Below, one piece after another: positions 724-59,510 of a stretch of 64,000 bases of DNA. Position numbers and translations under genes: made by a program. Under the pieces are notes generated by a model, which worked only from the letters and a program-made list of their open reading frames with translations, did no database searches and was not told the origin of the DNA. Origin of the DNA: Heterodontus francisci (Eukaryota); NCBI RefSeq assembly GCF_036365525.1, contig NC_090411.1:32070432-32134431 (forward strand), written 5' to 3'. How positions within the stretch are numbered: position 1 is the stretch's first letter; each line of letters begins with the position of its first letter.

Positions 724-3525
724 ATGATGGCATCTCAAGTGTGTCAGAACTACCACAAGGACTGTGGAGATGCTGTTAACAAGCAAATCAACCTGGAGCT
801 CTATTCCTCCTATGTTTATCTTTCCATGGTGTGTATTGTTTTCTTGGCGTTCTGTTTCAAAGTTAAGACTGGGATTTCAATGTATTTTGAGTAGCTAGAA
901 TTTCTGTAGGTCTCACAGCTCCAGCGACCTGGGTTCAATTCTGGGTACTGCCTGTGTGGAGTTTGCAAGTTCTCCCTGTGTCTGCGTGGGTTTCCTCCGG
1001 GTGCTCTGGTTTCCTCCCATATGCCAAAGACTTGCTGGTTGATAGGTTAATTGGCCATTATAAATTGCTCCTAGTATAGGTAGGTGGTAGGGAAATATAG
1101 GGACAGGTGGAGATGTGGTAGGAATATGGGATTAGTGTATGATTTAGTATAAATGGGTGGTTGATGGTCAGCACAGACTCTGTAGGTCGAAGGGCCTGTT
1201 TCAGTGCTGTATTTCTAAACTAAAACTAAATATTAATTGGGTTTATAATGTATCTTTCTAGTTCTCCTAGACTTAAATCTGTGAATACCCTTGAAACAGG
1301 GACTCTATTCCTTGCTCTGTAATATTTATGTCCAATTTTGAAAGTAACTCCAGTTCTGTGTAGTTTCCAATAGAGGATTCACGATCATGTATAAACCTAT
1401 TCAACTTGAATGGCAACAATGAAGTTTAGTGACTAGTTAGTGGAACACTGTCTGACTAGTTCTGGTCTGTCTTTCCCCCTTTGTAAATGAGTAAATCCTG
1501 TGGTGCTGAATTCTTTTGTTTGAGTAATGAATTTGCATGAAGCAGTAATTGAAAAGTCTCATTCAGTCCAATAAGACTTTTAGATCACTTGTCTCTTCAT
1601 TGGTGGACGAAGGATGTCCTGCTGATAAATGTAGTTTAAATGCTGAAATGAAACTTGGATCCAAATAGTGTTACTGCTTTTAGTAATGTCACTGGGAGGA
1701 GCATTTCATCATGGTTAGTATTTTACAATATTAACTTGAAAAACCAAGCCCCTTAATTGAAGAAGATTCTTTTGAGATAAAGAATGGATGATTTACTAGG
1801 ATGTTATTTTTAACGTGACCATGAATGATATTTGGGTCTGACCTCTCCCTTTCCATTTTTGCCTCTACCTGCAGTCCTATTACTTTGACCGGGATGATGT
1901 TGCCCTGCGTCACTTTGCTGAGTTCTTCAAGGAGCAGTCACATGAGGAACGGGAGCACGCTGAGAAACTGATGACATTCCAGAATAAACGTGGAGGCCGG
2001 ATCATCTTGGAGGACATCAAGGTTAGATTTAATAAGCCGCTCCCTTCAACAGATTGGACTGCAGTTTCCATTCTATCGGATAAAAGCAAAATACTGCAGA
2101 TGCTGGAAATCTGAAATAAAAACAAGAAATGCTGGAACCACTCAGCAGGTCTGGCAGCATCTGTGAAAAGAGAAGCAGAGTTAATGTTTTGGGTCGGTGA
2201 CCCTCCTTCGGAAATCCGGAATGTTAACTCTGCTTCTCTTTCCACAGATGTTGCCAGACCTGCTGAGTGGTTCCAGCATTTCTTGTTTTTATTTCAGATT
2301 TCCAGCATCTGCAGTATTTTGCTTTCATCCTATGTTCCTTTATTCTAATAATGTCAGTACTCAATCTATCTAGAGTTTAATGAGTAAAATTTCTAGTGTT
2401 GGTGAGTTGGTATGACTGACCTTTGTCTCCTATATTTATAAAATCAATAAATGGATTTTCAGAAGGAACAACGTCTGCTTTGTCAACTATTGGCTGAAAC
2501 ATACAGTGCTTAACTAGGTAACAGTCTTGAGAATGTGGGCCACAGCTGTAGATGTCCCTTAAATGTAGTTGAGGATTATAAAGGAGAAAAAGAAAATTTT
2601 GCATATTTGGGGTAATTGGGATTGGAGCTTTGGCCAAAAATGGCAGTGAACTGATCCAGTGTCCTGTAATGGTCTGTCAACCCAGTGATTAAACCCCATC
2701 CCTCATAGTATTGGGGTGCACAGATTGTCTTTGTTACTGCTAACATTGTTGACCTTGAGCATAACATCCCTTGGACTTTGCACTCCCACTAAAAAGACTA
2801 CTATTCTGTTCCAGAAGCCAGAGCAGGATGAGTGGAGCAATGGTCTGGAGGCAATGCAGAGAGCTCTGCAGATGGAGAAGGATGTGAACCAGAGTCTGCT
2901 GGATCTGCACAAACTCTCCACTGGCAACACTGACCCTCATGTAAGTTAATATTGGAATGAGTTTTCAGGTTTGAAGGTGATGATTAGAATCTACCCTTAA
3001 CTCTGGTAGAATTCCATAAGTTTTTTTTTTGTCTTATTTAAAAAACCAAGACATCCACACTAGATCTTGATCACTGAACAGTTTGCAAGGTACTTGGTTT
3101 CTCTGGCATCAATCTTGACTTGACTCCCAGTTTAATGGAATTGATTTGCCACATGTGGGTAAATTTTGGCCTTGTCTGGCTAAATATATCCACAGAATCT
3201 GAATGATTTCCTTCTGTGCTGACCACTTGGCCCACTGCCTGTGCTTCTTTCTCCAGAGAAAGTCTCGCTCCCATGTGCAGTACTTGTGCTATTATCCCAG
3301 TGCAAATAAAAATCTTATCTAATGAAGATTCTTGCTTTTTTAAGCTAACTATACTCGCCTGTTTCTCTTATGTTCTAGTTGTGTGACTTCCTGGAGACCC
3401 ATTACTTGGATGAGCAAGTGAAGATGATCAAGAAGCTTGGAGATCACATCACCAACCTGAAGAGACTGGGAGCTCCTGACAATGGCATGGGAGAGTACCT
3501 GTTTGACAAGCACACGCTGAGTTAA
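724..3525 (+). CDS. fth1: Ferritin heavy/middle-type subunit, copy 1 (A-type), 174 aa
   Basis: Exons 724-828, 1875-2021, 2815-2940, 3379-3525, all [71 protein letters not shown].../[26 protein letters not shown].../[15 protein letters not shown]...DKHTLS*. Ferroxidase ligands equivalent to human FTH1 E27, Y34, E61, E62, H65, E107, Q141 are present. AATAAA at 3606. The symbol is family-level; orthology (H versus M) is not established. Confidence 0.95.
911..1230 (+). mobile_element. V-SINE (HE1-like), 5'-truncated, in intron 1 of copy 1
   Basis: B-box GGGTTCAATTC, V-domain TGTGTGGAGTTTGCA..TTCTCCCTGTGTCTGCGTGGGTTTCCTCCGGGTG, and a CR1-derived tail GGGCCTGTTTCAGTGCTGTA..CTAAAC. Absent from intron 1 of copies 3, 5, 6 and 8. 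Confidence 0.8.
2078..2330. mobile_element. Penelope terminal-repeat-derived hairpin in intron 2 of copy 1
   Basis: About 110-bp inverted arms (AAAAGCAAAATACTGCAGATGCTGGAAATCTG.../...CAGATTTCCAGCATCTGCAGTATTTTGCTTT). Same sequence family as the end of the GIY-YIG element at 34871. Confidence 0.8.
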
Positions 3526-57447: not shown

Positions 57448-59510
57448 ATGGCTTCTCAAGTGCATCAGAACTACCACAAGGACTGTGAGGATGCTATTAA
57501 CAAGCAGATCAACCTGGAGCTCTATTCCTCCTATGTTTACCTGTCCATGGTGAGTCTTGTGTTTCTTGTCACTGCATTCTGAAAAGTTGGAATTTCTGCA
57601 CTTCAATGAATTGGCTTTAAGCTATATTTCTCTTGACCCTCTTCCCTGGGTGAGGAAACCTCTTGGGTAATGAGAGCTTCAAGTGTGTAAGACAGGGTAA
57701 TGTTGAGTTAATGGACTGCATGTTTCAGCAACTGTTCTCTATTGAGAGTTTTGATATTTGAAACTAACTTAACCACTACCTGAGTTTATAAACTGATGAG
57801 CACAAACCTGGTCAATGTTGTGTTAACATTAAACAAAGCTCAATCTCAAACTGGTAACTGTAACTGGTAAAATATTGGTAGGTCCTTATTTGCTTACTTT
57901 TTTTAGTTGGAAGTGATACACTAAGAATCCTGGAGTTGAAGCCATGTTCACTGCTTGGATTCCTATTTTATTTGTGCAAAAGATGAAGTAAGGATTTTTT
58001 TTTTCTATAGTTCCACACCCAATTTTATTTAGAAATGTATGTAACCAATTGATTCTATGCTGCCTCAATGTTGCAAAGTACTCTTGAAGTTTAGTTCTCA
58101 CTGTAATGTAGGGAACAAATAGCCACTTTATGCACAGTAAGCTCCTGGCAATTGAAATGACTAGATTGTCGGTTGGCTGAAGGATAAATATTGGCCAGGA
58201 CATTGGAGGGAACTCCCCTGTTCTTTGAAATAGTGCTGAGATATGTATCTGAAGAGGACAGATGGGGTCCCTTGGTCTAATTTTACTTTTTTAGTAAAAA
58301 GGTACTAATCCAGCACTAGATTTTAGTCTGACTTTGAGAAATGCATCTAACCTTTTTTTGGCTGAGTCCTATATGAGCATTGGATAGCTCCTCCCTCAAT
58401 TAGTGAATAAATGGTTTCCACTTTTTGAAAGAACTGAGGAAAATATAAATTTTATATTAAATTCTCTCCACAGTCCTATTACTTTGACCGGGATGATGTT
58501 GCCCTGCGTCACTTTGCTGAGTTCTTCAAGGAGCAGTCACATGAGGAACGGGAGCATGCTGAGAAACTGATGAAATTCCAGAATAAACGTGGAGGCCGGA
58601 TCATCTTGGAGGACATCAAGGTTGGATTCAATGAATGATTGGCCTCCTGTCTGGATCCCCTTGGACTGATTGCTCTAGAAAGCATTTGAAAGAATAGTTC
58701 AAAATTGATTTCTATGGATGTGGTGATTTAATGCAGTAAACCTATATTGTGATGTGTTGGCTCCTGCTAACATGGGACTTCTGGTTGCTTGTTCTCCTGT
58801 TTCCATTGTATTTGTATATCTTGCTTAATCCATTTATAAGTGAACTGTTTGTTTGACTTTCCAGAAGCCAGAGCAGGATGAGTGGAGCAATGGTCTGGAG
58901 GCAATGCAGAGAGCTCTGCAGATGGAGAAGGATGTGAACCAGAGTCTGCTGGATCTGCACAAACTCTCCACTGGCAACACTGACCCTCATGTAAGTTCTT
59001 TTAATGTGGGCTTTTTGGATAAATTGGAGTTCATGGGTCTTTGCAGTAGTCCTTGGACACAGATACTGTAAAATCTCATTAGGTTTGTATATTTTATTTT
59101 TGGACAGACTGCAGACTTCCAACTGGGAGGTAAGTCTAATATGGCTATTAACTAAATGTGTCCTTGTGATCAAGTAACTTGCTCTGCAGTAACTGAACTT
59201 ACTGACAGACTAGAGGGGCAATCAAGATTGCTAACATTACTATCATCCCGTCCAAGACAATTGAAATCCTACAGTCAAAGGGAAGCTCAAACATTCCTTG
59301 GTATCTGCTGATGGACATAACTAGTTTTTTTTTTCTCTACCTCCACCTCCCTAGTTGTGTGACTTCCTGGAGACTCACTACTTGGATGAGCAAGTGAAGA
59401 TGATCAAGAAGCTTGGAGATCACATCACCAACCTGAAGAGACTGGGAGCCCCTGACAATGGCATGGGAGAGTACCTGTTTGACAAGCACACGCTTGGGGA
59501 GTGTGACTGA
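57448..59510 (+). CDS. fth1: Ferritin copy 11 (divergent introns), 176 aa
   Basis: Exons 57448-57549, 58474-58620, 58865-58990, 59355-59510; [19 protein letters not shown]...; ends HTLGECD*; TATAAATA at 57372. Confidence 0.95.
58085..58280 (-). mobile_element. DeuSINE-like (SacSINE1-type) fragment in intron 1 of copy 11
   Basis: GGATAAATATTGGCCAGGACA..GGGAACTCCCCTGTTCTTTGAAATAGTGC resembles the reverse complement of the Deu domain, compared from memory. Confidence 0.5.

Follow-up and report, generated by a model that had tools for sequence, protein, structure and literature searches.

How can the exons of gene copies remain identical down to their synonymous sites when the introns between them can no longer be aligned? 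The question is raised by a window of 64,000 nucleotides (nt) in the 6.0-Gb genome of Heterodontus francisci (contig NC_090411.1, here C41, C41:32070432-32134431; positions without a contig name count from the first letter of the window), which holds ten four-exon ferritin genes and one remnant, every copy on the plus strand. Our analysis confirmed that the window is part of a ferritin array that is homogenised exon by exon. With a probability of roughly 0.76, recurrent DNA-templated non-allelic gene conversion that is anchored in the exons, together with selection on the protein, keeps the exons of this array alike. This is a known process which suffices for the pattern, and no unusual machinery is needed.

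The copies in the window, with their unit numbers in the whole array, are the following.

724..3525, + strand: copy 1 (array unit 63), intact; exons 724-828, 1875-2021, 2815-2940 and 3379-3525
5695..7664, + strand: copy 2 (unit 64), a pseudogene whose exon 1 contains a TGA; majority sequence in exon 3 (7020-7145)
11413..14037, + strand: copy 3 (unit 65), intact; exon 3 at 13315-13440
18222..21004, + strand: copy 4 (unit 66), intact; exon 3 at 20295-20420 with one silent change (AGA>AGG)
24841..27089, + strand: copy 5 (unit 67), intact; exon 3 at 26374-26499
31197..33595, + strand: copy 6 (unit 68), intact; exon 3 at 32897-33022 with one silent change (ACT>ACA)
37326..40476, + strand: copy 7 (unit 69), B type, intact; exon 3 at 39835-39960
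43724..45952, + strand: copy 8 (unit 70), intact; exon 3 at 45239-45364
48168..50467, + strand: copy 9 (unit 71), intact; of B type, but the 3' flank differs; exon 3 at 49820-49945
53848..54677, + strand: copy 10 (unit 72), remnant with a promoter piece; exons 1-2 lost
57448..59510, + strand: copy 11 (unit 73), intact; exons 57448-57549, 58474-58620, 58865-58990 and 59355-59510; introns unalignable to those of the A types

The array to which they belong, examined over C41 31.47-32.33 Mb, comprises 87 ferritin units anchored on exon 3 (C41:31645403-32248500, about 600 kb), 68 of them intact, besides a unit that lacks exon 3 and some orphan exons. It forms a divergent palindrome with its axis near 31.817 Mb, the first 24 units lying on the minus strand and the other 63 on the plus strand. 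The minus-strand units mirror part of the plus arm, with a non-coding difference of 1-3% in most mirror pairs and of 4.6-6.5% in three, and units 47-66 are young multi-gene repeats.

The original prediction, which was made from the window alone, had claimed that the 126-nt exon 3 is identical in copies 1, 2, 3, 5, 7, 8, 9 and 11 and carries one silent change each in copies 4 and 6, and that copy 2 is a pseudogene. Both claims were confirmed (identical exons start at 2815, 7020, 13315, 26374, 39835, 45239, 49820 and 58865). Its wording of identical exons holds for exon 3 and not for the others, as exons 2 and 4 differ by 0.7-7.8% between window copies and the A and B types are about 9-12% apart in exon 1; copy 10 is an exception also in exon 3, which is cut to 98 nt and is 88% identical, and its exon 4 is 96% identical with indels. 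Copy 1 and copy 11 are identical over exon 3 together with the 6 nt upstream and the 7 nt downstream of it (2809-2947 and 58859-58997). For a single pair, zero differences at 26 synonymous sites would have a probability of 0.015-0.0006 if these sites had diverged by 15-25%. The introns of copy 11 were said to be unlike those of the A types, and local scores of 20-29 for introns 1-3, with shuffle maxima of 22-34, agree with this; however, intron 2 of copy 11 is homologous to that of copy 2 (score 96, shuffle maximum 22). Likewise, the strong divergence claimed between A and B introns was found in introns 1 and 3, where 21-29% of the aligned columns differ, but not at the end of intron 2, the final 60 nt of which are identical in copies 3, 5 and 6 (A) and copy 7 (B).

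Over the whole array, exon 3 has the majority sequence in 45 of the 86 full copies and 1-9 differences from it in the other 41. Where neither flanking intron end can be aligned, exon-3 distance was 1.07% (1374 pairs, 486 of them identical), and where both can, it was 1.22% (472 pairs), in a comparison of the first 73 units without units 1 and 72, whose pairs are not independent. All three introns are unalignable in 1499 of 3403 unit pairs. The comparison of exon distance with intron divergence that had been proposed as a check came out for uncoupling: among 75 complete units, exon distance correlated with intron similarity at -0.04, -0.04 and -0.09 for exons 2-4 and at -0.46 for exon 1, so that the similarity of exons 2-4 is independent of intron relatedness and exon 1 tracks the introns. 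Per copy, the departure from the majority at synonymous sites outside CpG is 22% in exon 1, 3.3% in exon 2, 1.6% in exon 3 and 4.1% in exon 4. Diversity is highest at the exon edges, identity drops to background about 10-14 nt from the donor sites, and the 3' flanks of the first 73 units fall into 11 classes that cannot be aligned to each other. The paralogues are thus alike at synonymous sites beyond what their age allows, as is typical of concerted evolution.

The template can be recognized where shared blocks include DNA outside the exons, as in two blocks that begin in the window.

6661..7153, + strand: exon 2, the 209-nt intron 2 and exon 3, shared by copy 2 and unit 34; 93.7% identical over 504 columns
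59283..61417, + strand: end of intron 3, then exon 4 with the 3' flank, common to copy 11 and unit 30; 92% identical

The first block joins units 188 kb apart; it begins 3 nt upstream of exon 2, ends about 8 nt downstream of exon 3 and has 192 matches and 5 mismatches in intron 2; introns 1 and 3 and the 3' flank are unalignable between the two units, and the block is the sole sharing in the gene body. Because it contains an intron, it did not come from spliced complementary DNA (cDNA), which cannot carry introns. The intron 2 of the pseudogene unit 60 and that of the intact unit 34, 164 kb apart, have 207 matches and 1 mismatch, and unit 34 differs from its mirror unit 19 by 10.6% in intron 2 and by 0.7-2.0% in other regions. 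Since so large a difference is confined to intron 2, one of the two units was overwritten after the palindrome had formed, and the simplest reading is a recent transfer into unit 34 from a donor resembling unit 60, with exons 2 and 3 as anchors, a direction that we infer. The second block is 2.1 kb long and joins units 269 kb apart whose upstream introns are much less alike. Furthermore, 240 nt of intron 2 are common to unit 25 and the clade of window copy 1, and units 82 and 86 have a common five-change exon-3 haplotype within unalignable introns, while the closest intron relatives of unit 82 (units 19, 34 and 77) have the majority exon 3. Such patchwork tracts, incongruent between gene regions, are expected under concerted evolution, and because they include an entire intron 2 or 2 kb of 3' flanking DNA, the template was DNA. 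The predicted short-tract conversion in islands of homology is therefore supported, but not its confinement to the exons. A non-consensus splice donor of exon 2 was also considered as proof of conversion into the intron, and was rejected, because single-copy ferritins have a similar donor, which is thus ancestral.

Non-functional copies are homogenised too in exon 3, but not in exons 1 and 4. Broken units have on average 1.0 exon-3 differences (n=18) and intact units 1.03 (n=68), whereas exon 4 has drifted in the broken units (6.1 differences against 2.6). In six related pseudogenes including window copy 2, no exon-3 site is variable where 6.7 would be expected from the introns, given a dead common ancestor (P=0.001). 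A further line of evidence is provided by reads from other organisms, as 4 of the 24 listed sequencing runs were compared with copy 11. In organism F (DNA), five exon-2 letters stand at 94-100% of depth and one exon-4 letter at 89%, letters that reach 0-9% in run X1, which is from the same organism as the assembly and possibly from the assembled sample itself. The copies of organism F are thus uniform with species-specific letters of their own, which is a mark of concerted evolution. In organism D, 15 contigs show the unit 82/86 haplotype before exon 4 with an agreement of 1.0, suggesting organism-specific shared variants at the end of exon 3.

The uncoupling of exons and introns could arise as follows. 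Selection on the protein would keep the exons similar enough to pair, and indels and mobile-element insertions would drive the introns below the similarity needed for pairing. The exons of 126-147 nt would then remain as homology islands in which a break in one copy can be repaired from another, and tracts would either stay within one exon or span two exons and carry the short intron between them. Exon 3, which is central, lies between short introns and has no CpG, would be covered most often, so that new variants may be overwritten by the majority before they spread, and exon 1, between a class-specific promoter and the long intron 1, would be converted far less. Yang et al. (2026, PMC13214024) used a mutation rate of 7 x 10^-10 per bp per generation. 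Given neutral synonymous sites, each exon-3 site would be overwritten about 60 times per mutation (1/0.016), which at this mutation rate would correspond to about 4 x 10^-8 per bp per generation. Such a rate would lie below that of non-allelic conversion in humans.

Nevertheless, several observations weigh against this explanation. For recombination in vertebrates, islands of 126-147 nt are short. Exon-3 alleles have lower copy counts, but this difference taken by itself lacks significance (P=0.15), the four pseudogene copies with one common stop give only P=0.08, and the test on six pseudogenes takes a dead common ancestor for granted, although these copies have two different stops. A tract limited to one exon does not show which template it came from, and the signature of GC bias is weak. 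A neighbour bias in the sharing of rare alleles was not found (61 of 5920 cross-class pairs, 0 of 219 pairs one to three units apart), although this test has low power and recurrent mutation can explain the level of sharing. Moreover, none of the listed differences of organism F falls in exon 3, the listing leaving out 3 of 16 differing places, and one contig of organism B, at low depth, matches exon 3 exactly, so that the synonymous rate may be slowed by some nucleotide-level constraint on exon 3. Exons equally frozen between species had been named beforehand as evidence for constraint and against conversion; this was partly observed for exon 3 in organisms F and B, whose neutral distance, like that of organism D, is uncalibrated (glycogen synthase and a Tob-like gene were considered as control loci), and exon 2 differs in F.

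The alternative that survives best is purifying selection at the nucleotide level, acting on codon use, on splicing or on a DNA element within exon 3, which would freeze the exons while old copies keep the ancestral sequence and conversion plays a minor part; we regard it as unlikely, but worth keeping in mind. It agrees with the lack of listed exon-3 differences in organisms F and B, and the contigs of organism F do not cover the copy-11 introns at 85% likeness. The ratio of nonsynonymous to synonymous polymorphism (pN/pS) is 0.2-0.4 in exons 2-4 of intact units, indicating that selection acts on the protein. In addition, according to theory, conversion makes purifying selection more efficient in multigene families and leaves the neutral rate unchanged, so that slow synonymous change would need some selection; as far as the accessible text goes, this theory allows conversion and constraint together (Fawcett and Innan 2011, PMC3924837). 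However, synonymous alleles arise in exon 3 at the usual rate (0.90 per site, against 0.99 in exons 2 and 4 together; P=0.81) and none of them exceeds 4 copies. Broken copies are as clean in exon 3 as intact ones, the neighbouring single-copy ferritins differ from the array exon 3 at 3 of 12 to 9 of 12 four-fold sites, exon 2 has array-wide letters specific to a species, and constraint cannot move an intron. Selection on the protein is therefore present but insufficient for the uniformity of exon 3. We also considered three narrower causes. RNA structure was rejected, as no folding signal was found in exon 3 (z 0.23; z -1.85 in exon 2). The absence of CpG (0 in exon 3, 6 in exon 2) was rejected as the full cause, because the gap persists at non-CpG sites. 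GC-biased conversion was rejected as the freezing force, its signal being only weak: GC content at third codon positions is 0.60-0.71 in array exons 2-4, 0.48-0.61 in single-copy ferritins and 0.54-0.57 in two control genes, and GC content is 0.38 in the introns.

Another possibility, raised already in the original prediction, is that the exons are overwritten in the germ line from ferritin messenger RNA (mRNA), directly or after reverse transcription, so that identity ends at the splice junctions. Besides DNA-templated conversion, ferritin mRNA, which is abundant in oocytes, or cDNA made from it would then be a position-independent repair template by which individual exons return to the sequence of the majority transcript while the introns stay. 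We consider this quite improbable, even though it would, if true, explain why uniformity is star-like over 600 kb, why neighbours show no bias and why exon 3 is nearly frozen between species. No distance dependence was seen, and the Greenland shark cluster has been reported to be expressed in the ovary (Sahm et al. 2024, 10.1101/2024.09.09.611499, accessible text). Processed retrocopies of array genes (L061, L063/L078, L064, L065, L071 and L076), some with poly(A), lie on contigs C36, C48 (two), C4, C34, C10 and C37, and their 3' untranslated regions (UTRs) indicate different parent units (19/34, 31, 13/46 and 7/44); their existence means that germ-line cDNA of array genes is made. The loss of identity so close to the donor sites (about 10-14 nt) fits as well, but a stop at the splice junction is also expected from a DNA donor with an unrelated intron. 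However, none of the 255 introns in the array has been lost (the shortest are 631, 192 and 270 nt), although alleles without introns had been proposed as the sign of a cDNA template. The 3' bias and the hitch-hiking of 3' UTRs expected of cDNA-mediated conversion were not observed either: there is no 3' gradient of uniformity, exon 3 (1.6% synonymous difference) being more uniform than exon 4 (4.1%) as well as exon 2 (3.3%), and the 3' flanks remain in their 11 classes. The documented tracts hold intron DNA, one of them likely from a pseudogene donor, which counts against a cDNA template and is compatible with an RNA template for exon-only tracts. The retrocopies do not provide a record of array-wide turnover, as no convincing ancestral letters common to independent retrocopies were found. 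Of 15 candidate retrocopy loci, 6 turned out not to be retrocopies, and L066 and L067 were rejected as retrocopies of the array, as they derive from another ferritin.

An assembly artefact, in which polishing with mis-mapped short reads wrote the majority letter into the exons, had also been feared, and is very improbable. Private exon-3 differences are kept in 41 of 86 copies and are common to mirror pairs, which argues against it; in organism F, the contigs are equally uniform with their own letters. X1 contigs cross the junction of intron 2 and exon 3 of copy 11 (58621-58886) with 0 differences, and no exon-3 letter reaches at least 10% at more than 100-fold intron depth. The reads close the question only partly, because run X1 may be the assembled sample and letters are listed only at 10% of depth or more, so that a private mid-exon variant of one copy (about 1% of depth) would stay hidden. 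Finally, recent duplication alone, suggested by the young repeats of units 47-66 and the closeness of most palindrome arms, has virtually no chance of being the explanation and is refuted for cross-class pairs, because exon distances are unrelated to intron similarity and exon 3 is no more different in the 1499 pairs without any alignable intron than in related pairs.

Further ferritin genes lie on the same contig. Four single-copy ferritins directly to its right (L091-L097, C41:32.255-32.317 Mb) have 60-78% exon identity and apparently lie outside the conversion pool. A second ferritin array (L099-L116, C41:26.667-26.839 Mb), with 13 complete units and 1 decayed unit about 80% identical to the first array, has a milder contrast, its exons being 1.3-3.7% and its introns 10-13% apart among 13 units. 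One locus of the first array, L089 (C41:32240510-32242300), has a single 556-nt intron that joins exons 2 and 4, and was considered as precise intron loss; this was rejected, because exon 3 was lost by a genomic deletion. Exon-2 stretches of the window copies pass the cut-off of the Pfam family PF00210 (Ferritin), for example C41:32128881-32129048 in copy 11. The array agrees with the description of FTH1b clusters (a large cluster in which four-exon genes follow each other in tandem on a single chromosome, some copies being truncated at the 5' end), and we infer from this match to published shark clusters that the array genes are FTH1b.

Some further features of the window were recorded. About 250-400 nt upstream of exon 1 can be aligned at 75-80% in all copies (57064-57568 and equivalents), even between units with unalignable introns, which suggests a conserved promoter. 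Some A-type copies have two consecutive start codons. Most window copies stop two residues past the shared core (LS followed by the stop, for example at 3520-3525), and copies 9 and 11 have longer, acidic tails (50456-50467 and 59496-59510). A short interspersed repeat occurs in both orientations (2075-2333, 19552-19811, 34864-35002, 36301-36381, 52527-52666 and 55362-55451), both in spacers and, in copies 1 and 4, within intron 2. The stretch 61450-64000 on the minus strand resembles by eye a long interspersed element that encodes reverse transcriptase, and is GC-rich (55% in the last 2 kb).

The array has practical and theoretical implications. It is an unusually clean natural test of the minimal homology for ectopic conversion in vertebrates, as islands of 126-147 nt stay uniform and the 98-nt remnant in copy 10 has drifted to 88%, although this is one case. 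Trees or Ks values based on coding sequences would make old copies seem recent species-specific duplications, pseudogenes appear young, and short RNA reads cannot be assigned to individual copies, all of which bears on claims that link ferritin copy number to longevity or ferroptosis.

Homogenisation restricted to exons is known from the Drosophila amylase and trypsin genes, silkmoth chorion genes and nematode families. For sharks, large, old and ovary-expressed ferritin clusters have been described with regard to copy number and synteny (Sahm et al. 2024), and 59 FTH1b copies were found in two clusters (Yang et al. 2026). As in the accessible accounts of these clusters (PMC13214024; 10.1101/2024.09.09.611499), a single chromosome carries tens of tandem ferritin genes, divided between a large cluster and a small one (here the second array), and some copies consist only of exons 3-4 (PMC13214024), as do units 1 and 72 in the present array. 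"Gene conversion", "concerted" and "homogeni" do not occur in the main text of Yang et al. (PMC13214024), and we found no report of exon-level homogenisation in shark ferritin arrays in a literature search that lay outside supplements and subscription journals. The canine FTHL ferritin-like X loci are also reported to evolve in concert over long distances by gene conversion, but they are six loci over 6 Mb, mostly pseudogenes and not a large functional array, and their account, in its accessible part, shows no contrast of exons with introns (PMC5363321). Conversion lasts until substitutions, large indels or mobile elements disrupt pairing, according to Fawcett and Innan (2011), whose opsin example is the reverse of our pattern, with introns converted and exons kept apart (PMC3924837). 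A parallel in behaviour is mammalian KRTAP1, in which, as here, coding regions evolve in concert, flanks diverge and the switch is abrupt, and for which short-tract conversion plus selection is the explanation, as is likely here; reverse transcription was rejected there because the flanks do not hitch-hike (Zhou et al., 10.1101/282418, accessible text). However, KRTAP1 comprises four single-exon genes with partial homogenisation (10.1101/282418), whereas the present array has 87 four-exon units with intragenic islands of 126-147 nt and introns moved over 90-250 kb. Thus, shark ferritin clusters have already been published and the process is known from KRTAP1, and the apparently new part is the exon-level homogenisation of the array.

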